Virus record (IMG/VR): IMGVR_UViG_3300020045_006937
Coordinates: 1-48,698 of that record
Length of the DNA: 48,698 bases
Direction: 5' to 3' (one strand)
Source of the DNA: a virus
Taxonomy: Duplodnaviria > Caudoviricetes
Below the pieces are notes generated by a model that saw only the letters and a list, made by a program, of their open reading frames with translations, was not told the DNA's origin and searched no databases. Below, piece after piece: positions 8,144 to 48,696 of this stretch (the stretch's first letter is position 1; each line of letters opens with the position of its first letter). Both the position numbers and the translations under genes were made by a program.

Positions 8144-8176
8144 TTTGTAACCTTTTTACTATAAACTAAGTATAAC
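8144..8176 (+). promoter_or_regulatory. Promoter of the TGTAACCTTTT family
   Basis: TTTGTAACCTTTTTACTATA is shared with sites at 15421-47, 19361 and 30781; precedes the early gene array. Confidence 0.6.
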
Positions 8177-15447: not shown

Positions 15448-15992
15448 TATTTTCTTTTCTTATAATTCTTATTAACGTGTTCTAAATAGCTATTAATCAG
15501 TGCGGTTAATTTTTTATCTTGCTCCCCGTAAAAATCCCCGTTAAAGCAAACAAGTTCATATTCTCCAGTCCAAGTCTTATAAAACTCAGCCCTTACATAT
15601 AATTTAGAATAAGTTAGGTTTGGATTGATAAGGAACTGTTTATCGGTAAAGGTTGGAAATAAAAATCCATTCTCTATAAGCCAAATAAATAGTTCTCGCA
15701 AAACTGGGATAGATTTTCTGATATGCCCGTTCTCGCATCCGTAATGCTCTGTTCCTTTAATCACTGCTTGCTGATACGTCTTTAAAAGCGATTCTGAGTA
15801 TTTTAACGTGTTATCTGCTCCTGATTGGTATATAAGGAAGGAAAGGAAAGAAAATTGATTAGGGGGTAAAATAAACGCCATATTAGCGTAGTGCTTAGTA
15901 AACACCCTCCCTTTTTTTCCATCTTCTAGTTCGGGGAAGTCCCAGAGCTTCTTAGTTTTTGTTAGCTGTGTTCTTTTTGTGTTCATTTCCAA
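15447..15992 (-). CDS. Winged-HTH / Rep-maintenance-like protein
   Basis: FTKHY..FSFLSFLIY..LIENGFL..FLINPNL pattern. Confidence 0.55.
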   Translation of the reverse strand: MEMNTKRTQLTKTKKLWDFPELEDGKKGRVFTKHYANMAFILPPNQFSFLSFLIYQSGADNTLKYSESLLKTYQQAVIKGTEHYGCENGHIRKSIPVLRELFIWLIENGFLFPTFTDKQFLINPNLTYSKLYVRAEFYKTWTGEYELVCFNGDFYGEQDKKLTALINSYLEHVNKNYKKRK

Positions 15993-18653: not shown

Positions 18654-18890
18654 TTAACACTCAGAGCAATCACTTTTAGCTACACTACGGGTACTAGTAA
18701 CCCCGCTATTCCTTAATTGCTGACATTTATCAATAGCGCCCTTTTCAGAACTCTCACAACTAAACTTCTGTTCTTTGCCGTTTTGGTATCCATACACGCA
18801 CCATACTCCAGATTGCGGAGAGTTATTCTTTTTTTGACAGCTTAACATCATTCCGATTGTTAAAGCTATAATCATTAGTTTTTTATTCAT
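18654..18890 (-). CDS. Small lipoprotein
   Basis: MNKK + hydrophobic stretch + LSC lipobox, Lys-rich after Cys; TGTAACCTTTT..GTATAAC promoter at 18934-18964 (minus). Confidence 0.75.
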   Translation of the reverse strand: MNKKLMIIALTIGMMLSCQKKNNSPQSGVWCVYGYQNGKEQKFSCESSEKGAIDKCQQLRNSGVTSTRSVAKSDCSEC

Positions 18891-19360
18891 TTTGTTTGGT
18901 TTTTTATTAATACTTAGATTAGTTTGATGATGGGTTATACTGAGTCTATTGATAAAAGGTTACAAAAATAGGCATTTTCTTTCGTTATTTTTATTTTTTA
19001 ATCCTATATCACCCCTTTATACATCGAGTTCCGTAAAAATCTGGCGTATGCTCTATTATTAACCCGCCAAAAACACCCAAAATCTTTGATAGTTTATTAT
19101 AAAAACATTATTGAGAGCCCTTAATTCACTCTTTTTATTAATAAATTTATTACCTTTGAACCAGCATCTGGTACTTAGTAATATAGAGTCACTCCCCCTT
19201 CCCATTAGAACAGGGCGCTTAGGAGTGACCTTTTTTTTAACCACACAGTAAGCCGAACCCTAACTAAATACCCCTCCACCCTCGCCACATAACCGTAATC
19301 CGCGTGCACTAAAAATAATTAAGCTAATAATCAGTCAGTTATAAACATTTTGTAAAACAT

Positions 19361-19412
19361 TGTAACCTTTTTACTATCTTTACGTTTGAATACATATAAC
19401 AACGTTCATTGA
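19361..19412 (+). promoter_or_regulatory. Promoter plus boxA-like antitermination site
   Basis: TGTAACCTTTTTACTATCTTTACG homologous to the other promoters; GTTCATTGA at 19404-12 resembles rrn boxA GTTCTTTGA. Confidence 0.6.
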
Positions 19413-19422
19413 TAATTTAAAA

Positions 19423-20282
19423 ATTAGCAACAAAAAGGAAGCCCTTTGAGAACCAACGTACAAATGTGTATGAGGAACAAAATAAGGGATACTTTTTCTA
19501 ATCTATGAATAGGCATACATGCCACGAAAGATATGATAGAGTTCAAACCAACATTCGCACATTAGAGGCGAGAGGGTATGTAAATTGAACACTGGAGAAT
19601 TGAGTTTGAATGTACAACAAACAAGACGTTCTTTGGTAGATTAGATAGCTAATAAATAAAGGGTTTAGAGGTGGAAAAATGATTGTAGTGTCCAATGTCC
19701 CCTCTTTACCTTTAAGATATTAAAAGCAACACAACGGACAAGGCTTAGGCACTGACCGCCCGAGCTTGTAAACAAAGGAGGGAAAGTGATGGGTAGCGAA
19801 CAGTTAAGACACTCATTAAACGTAATCAGCGAATAACTGTAATCGTTAAGAGGTGGTTGACCAGTTGCTTTTATAAGATAGTTGCATCTATGTAACGCTA
19901 TTGGTGTTGGTAAAATAATATAACCCGACTTCCTAATAGTCTACGATTGATGATTTATATGGACTGTAATGGTTCTTATATAATTGTAAGAGTAGATAAG
20001 TAGATGCAAAATAACCCCCGCCGATTTAAAATTGTTACAGAATTTGTAATTTTTAAATGTAAAGGTTTTGTGTTACAAAATTTGTATCAAAACAAAGTTG
20101 GCGGGGAAGTCACTAAAAATATGGAGGGGGAATTCTCATAGCGCGGACATGGCATAGATGAGAGTGTGAGAATGGTAGTTTGTGTCTAAAACCGCCCCCC
20201 TTCATATTTTACAAACATTAGCTGTTCTAGCATCGTTACTTACGCTAGTTTCTAAAGGAGGGTGCTCTAATCCCTCCACTAA
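19423..20282 (+). ncRNA. Tandem array of about six structured RNA modules
   Basis: No ORF of 60 aa or more; terminal stems at 19423/19653, 19658/19713, 19721/19873, 19882/20009, 20116/20210 and hairpins in 20218-20282. Confidence 0.7.
20035..20087. repeat. Paired TTACA-N5-TGTA(A) element 4
   Basis: Boxes 20035-49 and 20073-87, bracketed by CCCCGCC/GGCGGGG. Confidence 0.8.
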
Positions 20283-20303
20283 GAGTAAACTAAAACTAAA
20301 CCT

Positions 20304-20630
20304 ATGAACATTATAATCTCACTATTTATTTTATCTGCTATTGTATTTCCAATAGCATTGTATAAAAGGTCGAAATCCCTTAAATTTAGGCTTATAGAGC
20401 ACAATAATTTAGGATTGAAGTCTTATACTCCCCAAGTCAGAATCGACGGGATATGGCTTTATATTGTCATAAACAACGACTTTGTAATGGTTGATACAAA
20501 TATGGGTGACGCGTTTTTAGACGCTCACGATGCAATAGCTTTAATTGAAAATTTTAAATCGGCGGGACATTTTATAATCCTAAGCAACCGTAAACTTAAT
20601 AATAACGAGAAATCAATAATAATTGAATAA
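20304..20630 (+). CDS. Membrane-anchored hypothetical protein
   Basis: N-terminal TM helix. Confidence 0.7.
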   Translation: MNIIISLFILSAIVFPIALYKRSKSLKFRLIEHNNLGLKSYTPQVRIDGIWLYIVINNDFVMVDTNMGDAFLDAHDAIALIENFKSAGHFIILSNRKLNNNEKSIIIE

Positions 20631-21027
20631 TATGGGAAGTTATACAGAATTAATTTTCGGGGCAAGTCTTAAAAAAGAAACGCCGCCAGATGTAATTGAA
20701 ACGTTAAAGCATTATTGCGGATTAGTTGAATTGCCAGAAGAACAACTAGTATTTAAAACAAAGTCGGGGCGCAATCCGTTAAATATGGGCGGTAGTTATT
20801 ATTTTGGAGTTATTAATACTGACCCTCAAATGATTTATGATAAAATTCGCCCATCTTGGTATATTTCATCTAGAACTAATTTAAAGAATTACGAAAATGA
20901 AATTGAAGATTTTCTTAAATGGGTAAAACCATATTTAGATTCAGGTAGTGGTGAAAGAGAGTTTTATGCCATTGTAACTTATGAACAAGGAGAGCCGACA
21001 ATTTATTATTTAGAAGAAGAAGAATAG
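20623..21027 (+). CDS. Conserved phage hypothetical protein (likely start MGSYTEL at 20632)
   Basis: LKNYENEIEDFLKWVKPY motif. Confidence 0.8.
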   Translation: MNNMGSYTELIFGASLKKETPPDVIETLKHYCGLVELPEEQLVFKTKSGRNPLNMGGSYYFGVINTDPQMIYDKIRPSWYISSRTNLKNYENEIEDFLKWVKPYLDSGSGEREFYAIVTYEQGEPTIYYLEEEE

Positions 21028-29788: not shown

Positions 29789-30024
29789 AATTAAATATAG
29801 GACAAGAGGCTTTTGTAGGATATAAAATATCTGAACATTATTGTAATATCCAATATGGAACTTGGAACGGGAAAGAGTTTGTGTTTGGATTAAATGGTTC
29901 TGAATGGAATAAAGAAATAATTAAAAACGTAATTAGTTTTTGTACTATTGGAAAATTTGGAATTTCTGATGGTAGAAGTTTTGTAGTTGAAAATGATATA
30001 GCTAAATTAATCCCGCCGAGTTGA
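29767..30024 (+). CDS. Hypothetical protein (likely start ATG 29779)
   Basis: Operon ORF. Confidence 0.6.
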   Translation: MPLYMQVELNIGQEAFVGYKISEHYCNIQYGTWNGKEFVFGLNGSEWNKEIIKNVISFCTIGKFGISDGRSFVVENDIAKLIPPS

Positions 30025-30029
30025 AATCG

Positions 30030-30082
30030 TTACAATATTTGTAACAAAATAACATCGCGCGGAAAAATAACAAAAATTGTAA
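30030..30082. repeat. Paired element 7 (N5; second box TAACA)
   Basis: Boxes 30030-44 and 30068-82. Confidence 0.7.
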
Positions 30083-39839: not shown

Positions 39840-42800
39840 TTATTTCTTATCATTTCCTATGAGTTTTTCAACATCATTAGGCACTTTTCTTATCCTATTG
39901 TAAGGCAAAACATCTTGAAAATCTTTCCACGCCTTATCGCCATCGTGTTTTGTAACTAAATCTTCAGTAATATCAATCATTTTGCCAAGAGTCCCTATTG
40001 CCGCTGGCGGAGAAGTGACTGTATATTTTAATTGATGTGGGTCAAAAATGAAAAGCATCTGACCTAATGTATTCTCTATCATTCCAGCCTTTTTACGCTT
40101 TTCATCATCGTCATCGTCAGAATATTTCCAAGCAAACAAAGCCGCTATTATCATTAATCCCTTAACATTGCTTCTGAAGTTTTTAAAGTCATCACCATTC
40201 CAAACCTTTATAGAAGCGTCACTAACCTTTAGCTTCCTTAAATCATTCTTTACATCCGCCCAAGCTTGCTCATTAAACGTTCTCCATGTGCCAGCGTGTT
40301 CTACTCCATAAGAATCAATATATCTTTCCCCAAATCGCATTTTCCACCAATCTGGGATAAATGTTTTAAATTGACCGAGCACTTTTCCGTGCTCATACAT
40401 CATATACGCTCTTCTTTCTTTCTCTCCGTATTTACCCTGAATATCAGTTACTCTTTTTTGGTACTGAATAAGTTGTTTTTTTAACTCTGATTCATCTCCT
40501 TTATAGGAAAGCTTATCATCTTTGTATTCAAAATTACTCCATTCCTTATCAGATAATTGTCCTAAAAACATTGAGCCCTGAATCTGTTTCTCACCCCATC
40601 TCTGCAAGCCATACGCTAAGAAGTCTAATAATTTACCAGCATACAACTTAGGGTTTGAGTCAAAGTCTAATTGAATTATATTATACTCATCAAGAATAGC
40701 AAGTCCTTTTTTACTTAGTTTGCCATCAGACGCAAATAATCTTTTATTCCCTTTTGCAATACTTTCAGCGGATTCAGCTCTTAGGTTATTTAAATTACCA
40801 ATAACAACGTTACTTATATTTGCAAGTAAATTAAACGCCATTACGCGTTTTGAGGTTAAAGAGCGTAGCATTTTTAACGAATAATCTACTATTGGGTCGG
40901 TTTCTTTTCGTCTTTGATATACAAATAAATCACGCCAATTTTGAATAAATTCTTTTGTATTTTTACTATCTTTTCCCTTGCCTAATTTTAATCCTTCGTA
41001 AAACTGCTCAATAGAATCTGTTAAAGGAACAAATTTAGCCATGTGTTTTACATGAGTTATATCATCAATAAGAGACATCCCTGCTGAATAAAAATCTTTA
41101 GAATATTGTCTGTTTTTAATATCCTTAATTTGTTGTTTTTTATTAGCAATTTTCTTAGCATTTAAGGTAGGATTTTCTTCAAGCTTCTCTATTTCTAATT
41201 TTAACCTATCAATCAACTGTTGTGGTTGGTCAAATTTAGACGTAAGCTTTCCTTTATAATCAGAATAAGCCCCTTTTTCGCCTGCCTTTTTAGCCTTATA
41301 AGATACCGAAAGTAGTTTAGCTAACGCAATTGGGTATTTTAATTTATCGTCTTTGTAATAGTCTATAATAGCTTTTTGAGCCTGACCAACAAGCACTCTT
41401 TCTTTTTTGTTAGTTTTAGGATTTATATAATCTATTTCAGATGAAATATCGCCTCCGCCACCCATATAAGAACTCATTGCTTCTAAAAATCCATTATCCT
41501 GATAATTCTCCCTAAAACCTTTATCGGTTTTAATTATTTCAATCTCATTATCATTAACATCCTTACCAGATAATTTATTTCTTTCCTTTAACAACTCTTT
41601 ATAAGTAGAAAGAAACTCTTTTTGAGCATTTGTTAATCCAGATACATTAGTCCTTAATTTACCATTTTCCTCAATGAAATCAAAATATTTAGCAGAGTTA
41701 GATGTCACAAGACTTAATGCGCTTTTGGCAACACCCATCTTTTTGTTATACTCTTCAATAACAGCCTTACCTAATTTCTCAAACTTAGATTTTTTATTAC
41801 TGCGCTCAATTTGCATATCCATAAAGGCTAAGTCAAACACATTATTAAGTTCTTGAAGAGCTGGAAAATCCTCTGTTATATGACCTAATGTTCGTTGCCA
41901 AACATCTCTCCATCTTAAATCTTTAGAATTAGCATATTCAGTAATCTCTTCTCCAAACTTATTATTAAGTTCTTTTATGCGTTTATTATTAAGGTCAATC
42001 GCTATTTTTTGACGAACCTTGTTAAGCATTTCTTTATCAGCAAATCCATCATAATTTCTAGCATCGTGGTAAGCTTCGATTAATTCATCCAAAGTAAATC
42101 CAGTTAAATCCTCAGCATCCGCCACTTCTTTAACTTTCTTAATTCCTTTTTCAAAATCTTTTTCTTCTTGCTCCAAAGCCTCAATTTTATCCAAAATAGC
42201 ATCTCTTATGGATTCTAATTCTGTGATAGTTTCTTCATCTTCTTCTAAATCTAATTGTTCTTCAATTGAATTTAAATCATTATTTAGTTCGTCGATTTCG
42301 GCTTGTTTATTTTTTTGGAACAAAGATTGTCCATCCCCGCCTTTTAATTTCTTAGTACCAATTCCAGCGATAATTTGTTTTGCTAAATTTTTAGCTATGT
42401 TTTTCTCTAATCCTAAATATCTTTTTAACCAATCAAATATATAATTCAGATATTGTTTGAATTTACTTTCTTCTACCTTACTATCAAATATACCCGCACC
42501 TTCGCGTCCTATCGCCTCAGCTAATACTTCAATGCCTAAATCATCAATTGTATAGTCTTTAGATAATGGGTATCTGTCAGCAGTTTCTTCCCATAACTTA
42601 GTTCCTTCTAATTGCTTAATAGCTGCCTTTATAACGCGGTTATTTGTTCCGCCCATAGCATCTATCAAAATATGTCCAGCTTCGTGTATAGGGGTGTCTG
42701 TGCGTGCGTAATAAGGGTTAACGGATATAGTGTTAGTTTTAGGACTCCATTTACCTGACGCGTCTAAAGCTTCATCATATACGATTTTAACTTTAGGCAT

Positions 42801-45800
42801 AGCGGATTGCATAACATTAACTACTTTATCAATATCAGCTCTATTTCCCGCCGCTTCGCCTTTTTCTTGAAACACATCGTTTACATCCTCAATGTCTGGG
42901 CGTAAAATAATATCATCTCCTGTTAATTCAATATCAGGCATTTTTTCAAACTCCTCAATCACATCTTCGGTTTCAGATAATAAATTTTGCTTTTCAGCTT
43001 CATCCATCACCTCAGCCATCGCTTGTTCTTGTGGATTCAATTTCTCATTATGAGCTTCAATTAAAGCCTCAGCCATAGCAGTTGGATGTATGTATCCATT
43101 AACTACATTTTCAACTTCATCTTTAATTTGAGTGTCATCCCAGCGTTGTACATCTTGGTTGCTCCAAATATAATGTGCTACACCTTCAATAGAAGGGGCG
43201 TTTTTATTAAGGTAATTTAAACGAGCCTGAATTTCTTTTCCCGCCGATTTATATAATTCACGAATAGCAGAAGAATTAATTTTTCCTCCACCAATGAAAT
43301 ATTGTAATACAAGTTCATGCGGCGTGTTAGGCTCTATTTGTAAAGCTTTTTTGTAACGAGGGTCTTTTATTTTCCTGCGGGCTTTTGGAGTGCCTTTTTT
43401 GCCTTTGCGAGTTCTATTGCCTTCATTCCTATTTTCCGTATCTGGTCGGGACTCAGATTCCTCTGTTCCAGTGGTACTTTCTTTGCCGTATTGTTTTTCA
43501 TATTTTTCACTAAACGCGTTTGTGTATAATCCACTCTCATCTAAATATTCGTTGTAATCAGCATCGGGGTCGTTTTTAAGCGCCTCTATGTTCTGAGCGA
43601 TATATTCTTCTTTTGTAGGTTGTACGTTTTTATTAGCCGTAGGTTGCGGTTTAATAGGTGTTTTAGGAGTTACTGTTACTTCACCCTCGGTTGGAGGTAT
43701 AATAGGATTCTCACTAATAGTACCTAAATCTTCTAAATAGTCAATTTGCTTTTGATTATACTCAACCTTTTTGCCAGTGTTGGTTTCTTTCATGTACCCC
43801 ACGAATTTACCCGTGTTAGCATTGAAAGCTTTTATCACTTTTTTAGCTGGCTTACCTTCTTCAAAACTTGGTATTTCTTCCACTTTTAAGCCGATAGGGA
43901 ATCCAACTAAGTCATCCTTATCAACTAAATGCTCAGTACGCATGTGTCCTCTAAAGCCTTCTTCGCGCTCCATAGAACTACTAAACTTCATTACCTTTCC
44001 ATCAGGTAGTTGTACGCCAAAAGTTTTATTTTTCTTTCCTTGCGGAGAAGTAAATTGTTTCTCTACAATATTTCCTAACATTGTTTTGTTAGGTTGTTTC
44101 TCTAAATACGCAACTGTTTTTTTATGTAAATCACGCGCGTTAAGTTTTCCTGAATTAAATTCAGTCATTGAAATGTCTTCGTAACTGCGCTTATCTTCTG
44201 GTATTTCTTTTTTGCTAGTTTCTTTCTTATACTTATCAGCCAGAGCTTGCATAATAGGACTTAGCTTAGGCTTTTTCTCTCCCTCTTTTTTAGGCGGGTT
44301 CTCTAACTTAACAACATCATCAACAGTTTTTTTAGCAACTACTGTTTCGTCATTAATCTGAGCCTTTAATACAATTTCGTTAATCTGTTTTTGTAAATCA
44401 CTCGCAAACTTTTCTTTAACATTATACTGAGCTTGTTCAATAGGATTTAATTTAGAAGGGTCTTTTACCCCGCCGATTTCAGTTTCTAAGGATTGCTTTT
44501 GAAATGATAAATCAAACAACTCTCTTTTATTTTGGTCGTTAAGTTCTAATGAGCCTAACATATCGTTATAATCCTTGAACGCGTTAATTTTAGTGATGGC
44601 ATTATCCGCTTCAGCTTGTGTAAGCTTACCGTTCTTTACACCATTAAATATCTCAGACTTAAATCCTACAACAGCATCATTTCCTTGCTTAACAATATCA
44701 AATATTGCTTTAGATTGCTCATTAGCTTTTTCTATTTTTTGTTTTTGCTTAGTCTCAGTACTTGCCCCAGCCATTAATCCATATCCAGCACCAGCGCCAA
44801 ATCCTACTAAGGCTGCATCTATAACTCCATCCGATAAATTCATATCAGGTTTATACCCTGAATATTTATCAACGGCGTTTTGTGCAAATTGAGTAGCGGC
44901 TTCACTTAAAGCTTCCTCGGCGCTTGTACCTAAGTACTTTGTAACAACAGGACGGTAAGTGTCTTTAAATCCATCTAAAGCTAATTTATAGGCAGCCTCT
45001 TTGCCGTCTTTTAAAAAAGCATCTTTAGTTATACCACCAAGTTTAGTGATACCAAATTGCTCAAAAATACCCTCAAATAAGCCATTAGCAACGGCTATAT
45101 TGATTTTTGATTGTTCGTCCATGTTAGGGGCTTGCTCATCAAGTTCGCCTTTCTTTTGCGCTCCAAACACTGCTCCGCCACCTAATATACCTTGCACTAC
45201 TCCAACACCACCAGCGTTAGCTACCGCTAAACCAATAGTAGTTGGCGCAGATTCAGCTATTGAATTACCTAATAACCCAAACGCTTTACTATACTCACCA
45301 TTCTTTACATAGTCAGTAATGCCCTTATCGTATTTTTGATTAAAGTTTTCTTGATTAATTTTAGCTTGCTCATCATAATATTGAGCTATTTTATTTTCAG
45401 GTAAATCAAATCCTTCTGCTAGTTTCTTAGAACTAAACGCTGGCTCTAACCCTAACTTTCCAGTAGGGTCTAAAGGCACAGCGGTCATGTTAGCAATCTC
45501 ATTCAAAGGGATAGCGGCTAAATCATTTATAAACGCGGGGGTTTTAGCAAGTGCTGAACCAAGTTTCTCAGAACCTCTTAATATAGAATTACCTAAATCC
45601 TGATACCAACTTGTTTCGTTAAAAACTTCAGTAACATCTTTAGGGGGACGCTCATTAATCGCAAGGGGCTTTGGAATAGTAATTCCATCTACGTTATCTA
45701 CATAGTAATTTTTCTTTCCACCCTGATTAGAATGCTGACCTTGTATGGTTAAAATAGCTTCAGTTAAATCTTCATGTTTAGCTTTACCTTCATTCACTTT

Positions 45801-46034
45801 CAATGCTAAGTTTTTTAGCATCAATTTTTCATTATCATTGTCAGTTTTAATTCCTGCAATTATTTCGTCAAATTTTGGTTTGGGTTTTTCTATTTCATTT
45901 AATAGTCCAACTTCTCCATAAACTTCTTGATATGGTTTGTTAGGATTAAACGAAGGTTTTTCCGCTACGTCAGTATTTACGCTTAATTCCTTATAAGGTT
46001 TATTAGGATTAAATTTTGGTTTTTCGTCTGGCAT
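39840..46034 (-). CDS. Giant virion-associated (probably injected) polyvalent protein with zincin-like motif
   Basis: 2064 aa; Gly/Ala hydrophobic segments; TPIHEAGH..EVLAEAIG metallopeptidase-like motif. Confidence 0.75.
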   Translation of the reverse strand: MPDEKPKFNPNKPYKELSVNTDVAEKPSFNPNKPYQEVYGEVGLLNEIEKPKPKFDEIIAGIKTDNDNEKLMLKNLALKVNEGKAKHEDLTEAILTIQGQHSNQGGKKNYYVDNVDGITIPKPLAINERPPKDVTEVFNETSWYQDLGNSILRGSEKLGSALAKTPAFINDLAAIPLNEIANMTAVPLDPTGKLGLEPAFSSKKLAEGFDLPENKIAQYYDEQAKINQENFNQKYDKGITDYVKNGEYSKAFGLLGNSIAESAPTTIGLAVANAGGVGVVQGILGGGAVFGAQKKGELDEQAPNMDEQSKINIAVANGLFEGIFEQFGITKLGGITKDAFLKDGKEAAYKLALDGFKDTYRPVVTKYLGTSAEEALSEAATQFAQNAVDKYSGYKPDMNLSDGVIDAALVGFGAGAGYGLMAGASTETKQKQKIEKANEQSKAIFDIVKQGNDAVVGFKSEIFNGVKNGKLTQAEADNAITKINAFKDYNDMLGSLELNDQNKRELFDLSFQKQSLETEIGGVKDPSKLNPIEQAQYNVKEKFASDLQKQINEIVLKAQINDETVVAKKTVDDVVKLENPPKKEGEKKPKLSPIMQALADKYKKETSKKEIPEDKRSYEDISMTEFNSGKLNARDLHKKTVAYLEKQPNKTMLGNIVEKQFTSPQGKKNKTFGVQLPDGKVMKFSSSMEREEGFRGHMRTEHLVDKDDLVGFPIGLKVEEIPSFEEGKPAKKVIKAFNANTGKFVGYMKETNTGKKVEYNQKQIDYLEDLGTISENPIIPPTEGEVTVTPKTPIKPQPTANKNVQPTKEEYIAQNIEALKNDPDADYNEYLDESGLYTNAFSEKYEKQYGKESTTGTEESESRPDTENRNEGNRTRKGKKGTPKARRKIKDPRYKKALQIEPNTPHELVLQYFIGGGKINSSAIRELYKSAGKEIQARLNYLNKNAPSIEGVAHYIWSNQDVQRWDDTQIKDEVENVVNGYIHPTAMAEALIEAHNEKLNPQEQAMAEVMDEAEKQNLLSETEDVIEEFEKMPDIELTGDDIILRPDIEDVNDVFQEKGEAAGNRADIDKVVNVMQSAMPKVKIVYDEALDASGKWSPKTNTISVNPYYARTDTPIHEAGHILIDAMGGTNNRVIKAAIKQLEGTKLWEETADRYPLSKDYTIDDLGIEVLAEAIGREGAGIFDSKVEESKFKQYLNYIFDWLKRYLGLEKNIAKNLAKQIIAGIGTKKLKGGDGQSLFQKNKQAEIDELNNDLNSIEEQLDLEEDEETITELESIRDAILDKIEALEQEEKDFEKGIKKVKEVADAEDLTGFTLDELIEAYHDARNYDGFADKEMLNKVRQKIAIDLNNKRIKELNNKFGEEITEYANSKDLRWRDVWQRTLGHITEDFPALQELNNVFDLAFMDMQIERSNKKSKFEKLGKAVIEEYNKKMGVAKSALSLVTSNSAKYFDFIEENGKLRTNVSGLTNAQKEFLSTYKELLKERNKLSGKDVNDNEIEIIKTDKGFRENYQDNGFLEAMSSYMGGGGDISSEIDYINPKTNKKERVLVGQAQKAIIDYYKDDKLKYPIALAKLLSVSYKAKKAGEKGAYSDYKGKLTSKFDQPQQLIDRLKLEIEKLEENPTLNAKKIANKKQQIKDIKNRQYSKDFYSAGMSLIDDITHVKHMAKFVPLTDSIEQFYEGLKLGKGKDSKNTKEFIQNWRDLFVYQRRKETDPIVDYSLKMLRSLTSKRVMAFNLLANISNVVIGNLNNLRAESAESIAKGNKRLFASDGKLSKKGLAILDEYNIIQLDFDSNPKLYAGKLLDFLAYGLQRWGEKQIQGSMFLGQLSDKEWSNFEYKDDKLSYKGDESELKKQLIQYQKRVTDIQGKYGEKERRAYMMYEHGKVLGQFKTFIPDWWKMRFGERYIDSYGVEHAGTWRTFNEQAWADVKNDLRKLKVSDASIKVWNGDDFKNFRSNVKGLMIIAALFAWKYSDDDDDEKRKKAGMIENTLGQMLFIFDPHQLKYTVTSPPAAIGTLGKMIDITEDLVTKHDGDKAWKDFQDVLPYNRIRKVPNDVEKLIGNDKK

Positions 46035-47470
46035 TACTCGTAAGTATTAGTTGCTGGATTCCAAGTATAAGTATAACCGTTTTGTACTATTGTTTTAGGG
46101 GCATCAGAGCTTGGCGTAACAGAATTACGTTGGTCGGTAGTTGCAACTAATGAATTATACTTTCCTTGATATGCTGGAGAGTTAGAATCAACATCAGTAA
46201 ATACTTTTATTTTAAGTAGTTTGTTTGTTTTACCATCCTTATCCATTGGAGAGTCTACAATAGAAGCCTTTTGTGACCAACTACCATCAACTTTATAATC
46301 CGTACCAGCCTCTCCTTCTGATTCAAATGGAACATACCAACTGTTTTGATTAATAATACCATTCTGTTTACCCCACTCTAATGGCTTATACACATATCCT
46401 GATAGGCGTTTAATGCCATTACCAACCTCTTGAAAATCCCCATTATAATTAAATACGTCACCTGTATTATCTATTTCAATGCTATTATCATCATTCCTAA
46501 TAATGTGCTTCGGCTTACTTCCAAATGTAGCATCTAAACGCTCAGGAGTATCAGCTCCTACTTTTTTCTTTTGAATAGTTTCTTTGAAATAGTCATACCC
46601 TCCTGCATTATTGCCAGCTTTTGCTCTTGCTTTATCAATATCAGCCTGAGTTTGTAATTTCATTTTATATAAGTCATCAGCAAGATTAGTGTTACCCCAA
46701 TCAAACTTATTATTAATACCGCTTCGTATAAGCTCTTTAGCAACCTTTAATCCATCGTTAGGGTGTTGTTGGTCAAATTGTTCTTTGTGTTCTAAATAGA
46801 AAGCCTGAGCGTCTCTATCTAAGGTGTTTTCATTAGCCACTGTTTGCCAAGCTCCACTACGTCCGTTTTTTAACGTAACAGGTCTAATGTCTTTAAAGTT
46901 ATTTCCCAATTCAGAACCTTTTTTACTAAGGTCAACAAACTCTGCTGGCTTTTGATATACAAATGGTTTAAAACCTTCCTTTTGCGAAGCTTCTAATCCT
47001 AATTGATTTCCGTATTTTAAATAGTTTTCTTTCTGAGCAAGTAAATTTTGATAAGCTAATTGATTGTGCATTTGTGGATTCTTAGCTATCTCCTGTAAAT
47101 CTGCATTTAAAGCTTTGAAATTATCATCACTTGCTTTGCCTCTAAGGACGTGTTCGTTGTCTAATAATTGTTTTTTCATACCATCTAAAATGATACGCTT
47201 ATCACGGTTATACAAAGCATCAGGATTTTCTTTATAAAAAGCTCCAATTTGTTGTACAATAGGCTTATTAAATTCCTCAATTTTATTATGGTCAAATTGA
47301 TTTGCTGCCGTATTGTACTTCAACGAGTCGCTAAAGATTTGAGCCTTACTTTCTGCAAGAGCTTTGTTTTGCTTCATTACCAAATCGTGGCGCTGATAAT
47401 CACCTATCTGGTCACTTAAATTTGTACGGACGGCTAACCCCTGATAATAGCCCATATCTTCTCCAGCCAT
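46034..47470 (-). CDS. Probable internal virion/injection protein
   Basis: 478 aa, coupled to the giant gene. Confidence 0.6.
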   Translation of the reverse strand: MAGEDMGYYQGLAVRTNLSDQIGDYQRHDLVMKQNKALAESKAQIFSDSLKYNTAANQFDHNKIEEFNKPIVQQIGAFYKENPDALYNRDKRIILDGMKKQLLDNEHVLRGKASDDNFKALNADLQEIAKNPQMHNQLAYQNLLAQKENYLKYGNQLGLEASQKEGFKPFVYQKPAEFVDLSKKGSELGNNFKDIRPVTLKNGRSGAWQTVANENTLDRDAQAFYLEHKEQFDQQHPNDGLKVAKELIRSGINNKFDWGNTNLADDLYKMKLQTQADIDKARAKAGNNAGGYDYFKETIQKKKVGADTPERLDATFGSKPKHIIRNDDNSIEIDNTGDVFNYNGDFQEVGNGIKRLSGYVYKPLEWGKQNGIINQNSWYVPFESEGEAGTDYKVDGSWSQKASIVDSPMDKDGKTNKLLKIKVFTDVDSNSPAYQGKYNSLVATTDQRNSVTPSSDAPKTIVQNGYTYTWNPATNTYE

Positions 47471-48696
47471 TATATACCGTATTGATTTGTGAAATCTTGT
47501 TCTTTATTCCTAAGTCTCATATAATTTGCAAAACGATTAGTATCTGCGATATTGCTAATACCAGCCGCCACTGTTTGACCCGCGGCAATATTTTTTTGCT
47601 CAAACGCTCTTAGCGAGTCCTCGAATATATTACGGCTCATATTAGCCTTTTGATAAGCTAAATTAGCAGCGAATCCTTGTTTTTGTTGTTGTAGCTCAGT
47701 ATTAGCGCTTGCGTTCTGTAAAGAGCGCATAAATGCGTTATTAGAAGCGTTACGTTGCATATTAAAAGCATTACCCCCACTACCACCTGAATAATTCTTG
47801 GCGGCAAACGTATCAGCATTTAATAAGTTCTGATTTTGTTGGTCAAGTAAGAATTGTTGCTCGCCTGTAAATCCAAACTTCGCGTTCTTTTGAGCTGTAT
47901 TTACATTCTCTAAAAATGTTGGGTCGATTGTATTTACTGGACGTTTATCCTTTAAGCCTTTTCTTCCCTCGCTAATTTGATAAGCAGCTAATCCATAATT
48001 AGCAATAGCGCTTCCTAATCCATCAGTGTTAACACTACCTACCTTATCCCAAAAACCTGTTTTGGCTTTAGTTGGAGTTGTAGCAACTGGATTAGTATCA
48101 ATAGCATTTGCGTTGGGATTGTTGATTTCCTTTAAAGCATCTTCTGTTTCTACTGCTGATAAATCTGGCTTTATTGGTGAAATATATTCACGCGGAACAA
48201 AAGACTTTGATTTGTATGTTTTTTTAGGAGTAGTTTTTTTAGTTTCAGTGTTAGGTTTTTTATCGCCAATTTTAGTTACACCATCTTTAGGTGTTCCTTT
48301 AGCATAACCCTCCACTTTATCTCCATCATCTTCTTCTGCTTCTGGGGCAAGTTTTTCTAAAACATCATCCCCTAATTTATCTTCAACAGTTTCCTTTTGC
48401 TCAGGTGTTAATAATTCTTCACCATTACTTAGTTTAACTGGCACTCCATTCTTTTGATGTAATTTTGCTTTACCGTTCTTCATTCCTAAAGCGGATTTAA
48501 TTCTCTTAGCCATATCTGCGTTTTTAGCGGGCACAACAAAAGAGCCGTGTTCAACTTCAGCATCTATGCTATCACTTGTTCCCGTCCCTTTACCTTTAAT
48601 CTCGCCTCCTTTAGCGAATTCACTAGGACGGTAAGTATTAGGTGAACTAAAAGAAGTTTCTCCTTGATTACGTTTAAGTTTAGCGAGTGCTACTGC
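47470..48696 (-). CDS. Probable internal virion protein, 5' end outside the window
   Basis: Frame stays open to the edge: FAKGGEIKGKGTGTSDSIDAEVEHGSFVVP; Gln/Asn/Ala-rich C-terminus. Confidence 0.7.
   Translation of the reverse strand, partial: AVALAKLKRNQGETSFSSPNTYRPSEFAKGGEIKGKGTGTSDSIDAEVEHGSFVVPAKNADMAKRIKSALGMKNGKAKLHQKNGVPVKLSNGEELLTPEQKETVEDKLGDDVLEKLAPEAEEDDGDKVEGYAKGTPKDGVTKIGDKKPNTETKKTTPKKTYKSKSFVPREYISPIKPDLSAVETEDALKEINNPNANAIDTNPVATTPTKAKTGFWDKVGSVNTDGLGSAIANYGLAAYQISEGRKGLKDKRPVNTIDPTFLENVNTAQKNAKFGFTGEQQFLLDQQNQNLLNADTFAAKNYSGGSGGNAFNMQRNASNNAFMRSLQNASANTELQQQKQGFAANLAYQKANMSRNIFEDSLRAFEQKNIAAGQTVAAGISNIADTNRFANYMRLRNKEQDFTNQYGI

Follow-up and report, generated by a model that had tools for sequence, protein, structure and literature searches.

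The window analysed here is a 48.7-kb stretch of DNA (48,698 nucleotides) that makes up the entire virus record, and its genes include a helicase, a primase-helicase, an exonuclease and a homing endonuclease. The best named matches of the primase are to Flavobacterium, Cellulophaga and related phages (32-37%), and the closer relatives of the phage are contigs of 70-80 kb, two of which are filed in Bacteroidota metagenome bins; because of the primase matches and these bins a Bacteroidota host is likely, as a candidate assignment. Three large open reading frames on the minus strand (39840-48534; 2064, 478 and 354 aa) have no PHROG or confident Pfam match. A feature search weakly linked the 354-aa product (47470-48534) to crAss cargo proteins, and the DFDxD motif of the crAss-type virion polymerase is absent from the 2064-aa protein.

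At a strand switch, where leftward genes end and a rightward block begins, 1059 nt (19245-20303) contain no open reading frame of at least 60 aa. No other gap of this kind in the contig is as long, only two more reaching at least 450 nt (503 and 479 nt), and the stretch bears out the description in an earlier note of about 0.9 kb lacking such frames. That note had proposed an rrn-style array comprising a promoter, a boxA-like site and about six stem-closed RNA modules, and each stem arm that it listed, as well as the boxA-like word, was found at the position it gave. The first downstream ORF (20304-20630, plus strand, 108 aa, from the ORF list) matched no family in family searches. Because no terminator was found upstream of 20304, where nothing marks the 3' end of the tract, this ORF is likely to share its predicted primary transcript. 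In loci L256 and L257 a homologue of ORF 20304 stands behind other genes and the array is absent, and homologues of the neighbouring genes in L001, L256 and L257 all occur without it. L256 (1-100) and L257 (1-170) also carry 24-bp tandem repeats within the ORF upstream of the ORF-20304 homologue. On the other side of the tract, a GTCACTCC/GGAGTGAC hairpin (19184-19235) lies in the gap 5' of the promoter and is perhaps part of a leftward leader.

The predicted promoter (19356-19388, plus strand) consists of the motif TTGTAACCTTTTTAC and, behind it, two -7 candidates that overlap, TATCTTTA at 19375 and TACGTTTG at 19381, the latter being a perfect TAnnTTTG box. In Flavobacterium the sigma-A box TAnnTTTG is placed at -12 to -5 (PMC9723704), and transcription of the tract would start near 19387-19393. 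The ~30-base motif at 19356-19387 recurs at ~90% identity before the genes at 15448 (minus) and 30777 (plus), with a looser copy near 8146 (plus). Together with the perfect box, its presence at other gene starts supports, as a prediction, the promoter that had been placed ahead of the tract. A relative's contig covers the promoter region from 19360 onwards. Scanning for sigma-70 sites gave no information, with 5 found where 7.9 were expected. A phage-wide promoter motif, TTGTAACCTTTT, stands just 5' of a -7-like box at 8146 (plus), 15448 (minus), 18964 (minus), 19356 (plus) and 30777 (plus).

Immediately behind this promoter, and upstream of the predicted untranslated RNA, lies the boxA word ACGTTCATTGA (19402-19412, plus strand), which is present in one copy in the contig, begins 13 nt past the TAnnTTTG box and is unpaired in the predicted centroid fold. 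Its core GTTCATTGA, 15 bases past the box, likewise occurs once, both strands counted, and no change is listed for the word in a related contig from public run X1 (below). NusB-NusE recognises 8 bases of boxA (PMC3177189), and the consensus GYTCTTTAANA is gamma-proteobacterial and other groups may differ (PMC5725501). Among the rrn spacers of 16 genomes from one Bacteroidota order, GTTCATTGA was found exactly in five, GATCATTGA in three, GTTCTTTGA in seven and none of these in one. With a wide pattern, a GTTC(T/A)TTGA-like word, mostly GTTCTTTGA, stood upstream of 23S in all 18 Bacteroidota loci, and a boxA-type word preceded 16S in 12 of 17; in four of the other five the upstream sequence was short. 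Since it is identical to an rrn spacer word of Bacteroidota genomes, the phage word is, by sequence comparison with one Bacteroidota order rather than with the phage's own host, a true boxA variant of the host group. By analogy it would act in antitermination in the phage.

Downstream of the word, units A to H occupy 819 of the 865 nt from 19423 to 20287. The spacers measure 4-9 nt, and two have TAAGATA in common; the tight tiling with short spacers described earlier is thus confirmed. The per-module z-scores (-2.7 to -6.3) rest on borders picked after the fact. Unit A (19423-19653, plus strand, 231 nt; z -3.2) is predicted to be multi-branched, with an inner stem (19497-19505/19637-19645) and an uncertain 6-bp outer stem that competes with long-range pairing to G. 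Unit B (19658-19713, plus, 56 nt; z -4.2) is predicted to fold as a rod interrupted by internal loops, and p exceeds 0.9 for most of its pairs. Unit C (19721-19873, plus, 153 nt) has a 10-bp closing stem around a poorly determined interior (pair p ~0.55-0.67), with z -2.7 on the plus strand and -3.9 on the minus strand. Unit D (19882-20009, plus, 128 nt; z -2.9) is a predicted three-way junction with a 10-bp closing stem (p 0.93). Unit F (20116-20210, plus, 95 nt; z -3.9) has the 15-bp closing stem reported earlier, but the three-way junction reported with it (-32.5 kcal/mol) lies 2.6 kcal/mol above a nested stem (-35.1 kcal/mol), which is favoured; a complementarity scan also suggests a possible pseudoknot in F between 20133-20139 and 20166-20172. 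Unit G (20217-20250, plus) is a weak hairpin, z 0.0 alone, whose arms are able to pair with both ends of A (p 0.57-0.65). Unit H (20257-20287, plus) is a 6-bp G-C-rich hairpin (z -2.4, stem p 0.92), which may form an H-type pseudoknot (20263-20268 with 20282-20287). Of the hairpins proposed for 20218-20282, G (20218-20250) folds at chance level. By our count the tract has six to seven predicted folded RNAs in close succession, among which A, B, C, D and F are candidates for new RNA families.

Taken as a whole, the tract folds better than shuffled sequence, the comparison by which the earlier note had proposed to judge it: 19401-20300 has z -5.7 on the plus strand and -2.5 on the minus strand (20 shuffles per strand). 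It ranks first among the 44 non-overlapping 900-nt windows spanning 501-40100 (z -5.1 and -6.0 in two runs; runner-up -3.0). Fixed 120-nt windows, which cut through closing stems, do not single out the tract, and it holds three perfect Watson-Crick stems of at least 9 bp, a number that two other windows exceed. The folding signal is therefore one of long-range domain closure rather than dense local hairpins, and the fold predictions support a structured non-coding tract on the plus strand.

Hairpin E (20016-20106), which the earlier note had not listed, appears to be of another kind. It combines CCCGCCGA with two TTACA-N5-TGTA(A/T) palindromes 38 bp apart (20035, 20073), and on either strand no other hairpin is as stable (z -6.3 on plus, -5.2 on minus). 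E has a twin at 30012-30082, whose N5 palindromes (30030/30068) have the same spacing. Six TTACA-N6-TGTAA pairs, 39 bp apart, sit at gene borders of the window (5340/5379, 11935/11974, 18395/18434, 26358/26397, 29533/29572 and 35973/36012), and the N6 form has 10 exact copies against 0-2 at other spacings. In the relative L256 the arms and their spacing are kept, the filler is changed and the element lies just upstream of an ATG. This dispersed family makes it likely that E is a DNA site, an operator or promoter, and that the paired palindromes serve as putative operators or promoters for a phage protein; E may start or control a second unit consisting of F, G, H and the ORFs. A separate word, TCGGCGGG, has 19 copies in the window (~76 times expectation), in and between genes and mostly on the coding strand; it is present also in L256 and L257 and could be a Chi-like or protein-binding word.

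Searches for known RNA families gave no match. The earlier note had proposed an Rfam search, and with Rfam 15 no family matched at gathering score and none reached E<=10 in 18800-20700; covariance models of GOLLD, ROOL, OLE, manA and the other Rfam 15 families thus found nothing here. That none of the units looks like a tRNA was borne out, as neither ARAGORN nor Rfam called a tRNA or tmRNA; one weak T-loop-like word is present on the plus strand. Self-cleaving ribozymes (hammerhead, HDV/theta, twister, pistol) had no Rfam match, and rough patterns of the catalytic cores gave no hit on the plus strand and one loose twister-like string on the minus strand. The tract had no match to an Rfam CRISPR repeat, and a single pattern from the start of D found no array among 301 Bacteroidota genomes. 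The modules are not related to each other and tandem repeats are absent. Exact antisense matches of at least 13 nt to the rest of the contig were absent for A, B, F and G/H, and C and D had one each, which is the chance level.

Searches for homologues were similarly negative. blastn against 50,697 phage records returned two short chance matches only, and exact 17-mers of B and A in IMG/VR gave 12 loci, all by chance; a 22-base promoter pattern and a 21-mer of B in JGI metagenomes had no hits. Neither blastn over 117 loci nor nhmmer over 1.78 Mb of collected sequence found a homologue, and the tract had no match in 401 Bacteroidota genomes. Covariance models, which had also been suggested earlier, were built from the single sequences of B, D and F and run over 67 sources and, without filtering, over 14 sources, where the best non-self matches had E-values of 0.17-0.8; the model of B had no match in 151 genomes. 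Thus, C, D and F have no homologue in these searches, and no full-length homologue of the tract was found in the databases searched.

Natural variation was available from contigs of three public runs: X1 covers 19360-19539 and 19592-19720, X3 (a metatranscriptome) 19575-19720, and X2 20213-20392. The runs were located through exact words of the tract, so the conservation of B (no change listed in X1 or X3) and of G and H (none in X2) is inflated; the ORF after H has 11 listed substitutions in X2. Of the differences, 9 of 18 are listed for X1 contig 1 and 5 of 10 for the X3 contig, and we examined the 12 listed changes in 19418-19643, leaving out two before boxA. Four are unpaired, six lie in pairs and all six keep pairing; the other two fall in the spacer that precedes A, where they disrupt nothing but a predicted long-range pair. 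The pair-keeping changes in A include two double changes, G-C to A-U at 19608/19618 in one contig and A-U to G-C at 19501/19641, the latter spread over two X1 contigs of different depth. Five changes are common to X1 and X3 and count as one event. The variation speaks against short conserved peptides, which the earlier note had named as a possible explanation: of four changes in ORF 19446-19508 one falls at a third codon position and three at first or second positions, and an insertion in X2 at 20297 shifts the frame of ORF 20182-20307.

The same contigs bear on whether the units are separable. In X1 and X3 similarity stops at 19720, within the B/C spacer, leaving 8 and 43 loose bases respectively; in X2 it starts at 20213, in the F/G spacer. 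These borders fit exchangeable cassettes. The proposal of an array of separable units gains indirectly from divergence of the relatives at two spacers and from a distant relative (L127, below) in which the boxA word and a non-tRNA tract are flanked by two tRNA genes, but similarity also breaks inside A (19539, 19592). The X3 piece, from a metatranscriptomic library and at depth 3, runs from the end of A through the whole of B, and may hold DNA rather than RNA of this phage.

The boxA word also occurs in other phages. One of them is G006:C73, a contig of 75.5 kb from the phage group to which the window belongs, with a primase 52% identical and several genes in common. By tRNA calls and the word, its locus L127 (14813-15481) has two tRNA-Met genes, and between them lie ACGTTCATTGA and then ~490 nt of non-tRNA sequence closed by stems (z -2.3). 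The second tRNA-Met(CAT) is unusually long, at 95 nt. Another relative, G007:C120, lacks the word. A scan for a T-arm plus the word gave 10 loci, eight in tRNA arrays of five lineages and two by chance, tRNA proximity being built into a pattern that itself requires a tRNA arm; the word follows the first tRNA in three of these lineages and the second in two. A scan for the promoter box plus the word gave 83 loci, with the word outside any 70-aa ORF in 16 and inside one in 67; tRNAs are present in four of the 83, and one of these four has a GOLLD gene as well. Outside ORFs, tRNA arrays stand behind a promoter-like box and the word in L238/L188 and L244, and tRNA-free gaps of 320-720 nt follow the word in four groups (those of L223, L241, L220 and L245). 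The folding z-scores of these gaps are -6.1 (L241), -3.3 (L245, equal on both strands), -2.4 (L223), -2.8 (L173) and -1.0 (L220). None of these boxA-word phage loci shares sequence with the modules of the window. As judged from sequence, the boxA-led layout recurs among phages but its cargo does not.

Some of these loci have features of their own. GOLLD RNA lies 3' of the boxA word among tRNA genes in L219 (2894-3303). L220 and L173 each have a promoter, the boxA word and a 370-nt folded leader, with several type I hammerhead matches downstream in both. L223 has a weak manA RNA match (1362-1576, minus; 27.6 bits against a cut-off of 55.2), which lies inside a 716-nt boxA-led tract ending in a terminator-like hairpin.

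These observations place the tract close to two known kinds of operon. rrn operons have boxB-boxA-boxC, a Nus antitermination complex and leader-trailer helices (PMC10250234, PMC3177189, PMC5725501). The tract resembles an rrn leader or spacer in its promoter, its host boxA word and its long untranslated folded transcript, here predicted. It differs in the position of boxA, ~10-15 nt from where transcription would start, in a cargo other than rRNA and in lacking both a boxB hairpin and a long RNase III leader-trailer helix around rRNA. Of the rrn-style label, the boxA holds, but no hairpin stands ahead of it, the closing stems mostly measure 6-15 bp and the search for a terminator was negative. 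Phage tRNA operons can embed GOLLD RNA or theta ribozymes (PMC10879173; 10.1101/2024.12.08.627333); like them, the tract is packed tightly head to tail with short spacers, and ACGTTCATTGA heads such operons in other phages and in L127, but the tract has no tRNA, tmRNA, GOLLD or HDV-like pattern. It thus resembles both kinds of operon yet belongs to neither, having no rRNA, tRNA or boxB.

Further parallels are more distant. In Cellulophaga phage phi14:2, long intergenic tracts at the g004-g005 and g005-g006 junctions are transcribed above most genes (10.1101/2020.03.07.982082). Long non-coding intergenic tracts are thus present in this Bacteroidota phage and in ours, a likely Bacteroidota phage, where their transcription is predicted; unlike our tract, phi14:2 has no boxA-like word on the plus strand of its first 9 kb in a pattern scan, and the two share no sequence match. 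ARAGORN calls a tmRNA inside the reported long non-coding RNA region of phi14:2 (L275, NC_021806.1, 4031-4500), which is absent from the features of that record. Lambda nut sites and the put RNAs of HK022 are phage RNA signals that lie close to early promoters and modify the RNA polymerase of the host; the tract resembles them in this, its effect on the polymerase being predicted. Unlike nut and put, the tract has no boxB hairpin, no N-like gene was identified and it is ~10 times longer. Pseudo-ToxI and RNA anti-CRISPRs are small, structured phage RNA decoys. The predicted RNAs here are also small and structured, with F and H perhaps containing pseudoknots, but the tract has neither tandem repeats nor a repeat-like match. 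We found no description of boxA-led non-tRNA RNA arrays in Bacteroidota phages in a literature search largely limited to papers outside subscription. One lead, PMC9025141, was dropped because the match was the name of a PCR primer.

Based on these results we consider it highly probable that the tract specifies a real structured, boxA-led transcript. We propose, with a confidence slightly above even, that it adopts the layout of a phage tRNA operon loaded with swappable non-tRNA RNAs, which are cut apart at the spacers. Host polymerase would start near 19390, and the NusB-NusE antitermination complex of the host would be loaded at the boxA word. The ~900 untranslated bases would then be crossed in one run without Rho termination, by analogy with rrn operons, where antitermination by the Nus complex is the model for an untranslated run (PMC10250234). 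Each module would close on itself during synthesis, and single-strand nucleases would cut the short AU-rich spacers to leave separate stable small RNAs. RNase III requires a stem of about two helical turns, and its cleavage of the closing stems is disfavoured because these (6-15 bp) look too short. Given a real transcript, separate processed RNAs are reasonably probable. The transcript would continue into the rightward genes, probably by read-through since no terminator precedes 20304, and relatives would exchange cassettes. As to the targets of the RNAs, our first choice, which is a guess, is an accessory role during infection, in which they bind proteins of the host or serve as decoys for them; a role in anti-defence is doubtful.

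The main rival is an uncut regulatory leader, which we judge possible but clearly less probable; the other readings are weaker. Here boxA and the domains would stay on the mRNA as one long cis-acting element, tuning elongation, stability or translation of the rightward early or replication genes, like nut or put. Such a leader would explain why the tract opens the rightward gene block with no terminator found before 20304, why H ends 16 nt upstream of the ATG at 20304, and why G pairing with both ends of A could enclose B to F. It sits less well with relatives that carry other sequence after B and before G, with the downstream ORF occurring without the tract in L256 and L257, and with the L127 boxA tract, which lies between tRNA genes.

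Improbable, in our estimate, is that the modules are domains of one large ornate RNA of the GOLLD or ROOL type. The modules close locally, the DNA element E interrupts the tract, neighbouring sequence changes at module borders and Rfam gives no match, although the size is similar, RNAs of this type occur in phage tRNA operons, L219 has the same boxA word upstream of tRNAs and a GOLLD gene, and A-G pairing could close one big loop. A DNA control region or replication origin at the transcription divergence, with the hairpins as by-products of palindromic protein sites, appears about equally improbable. The tract lies at the strand switch, close to a minimum of cumulative GC skew and ~0.9 kb from a gene resembling a replication initiator, and E is demonstrably a DNA-type element. 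Yet the plus strand folds more strongly, A to D reach z -5.8 on their own, without E, variants turn pairs into G-U wobbles, as suits RNA, and boxA works as RNA. A decayed tRNA cluster, short peptides or chance, despite the unremarkable 120-nt windows and the presence of ORFs of 20-50 aa, is largely refuted and scarcely credible given the lack of tRNA calls (beyond the single weak T-loop-like word), the codon positions and frame shift described above and the whole-tract z of -5.7.

Looking beyond this phage, our proposal of a boxA-led operon of swappable RNAs could be extended, as a speculation that we hold to be unlikely, to a general class in Bacteroidota phages, which would parallel hotspots of accessory genes on the non-coding side. 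Such uncatalogued RNAs would be produced early and in large amounts by the rRNA machinery of the host, and each would act as a decoy for a defence protein or an RNA-binding regulator of the host. What has been mapped so far of host takeover and counter-defence by phages consists almost entirely of proteins. If the proposal holds, phages would use the host rRNA elongation complex without an N-like protein, and operons of so far hidden phage small RNAs could be searched for by their promoter-plus-boxA signature. The tract would thereby offer an entry point to the role of the abundant non-coding transcripts in Bacteroidota phages.
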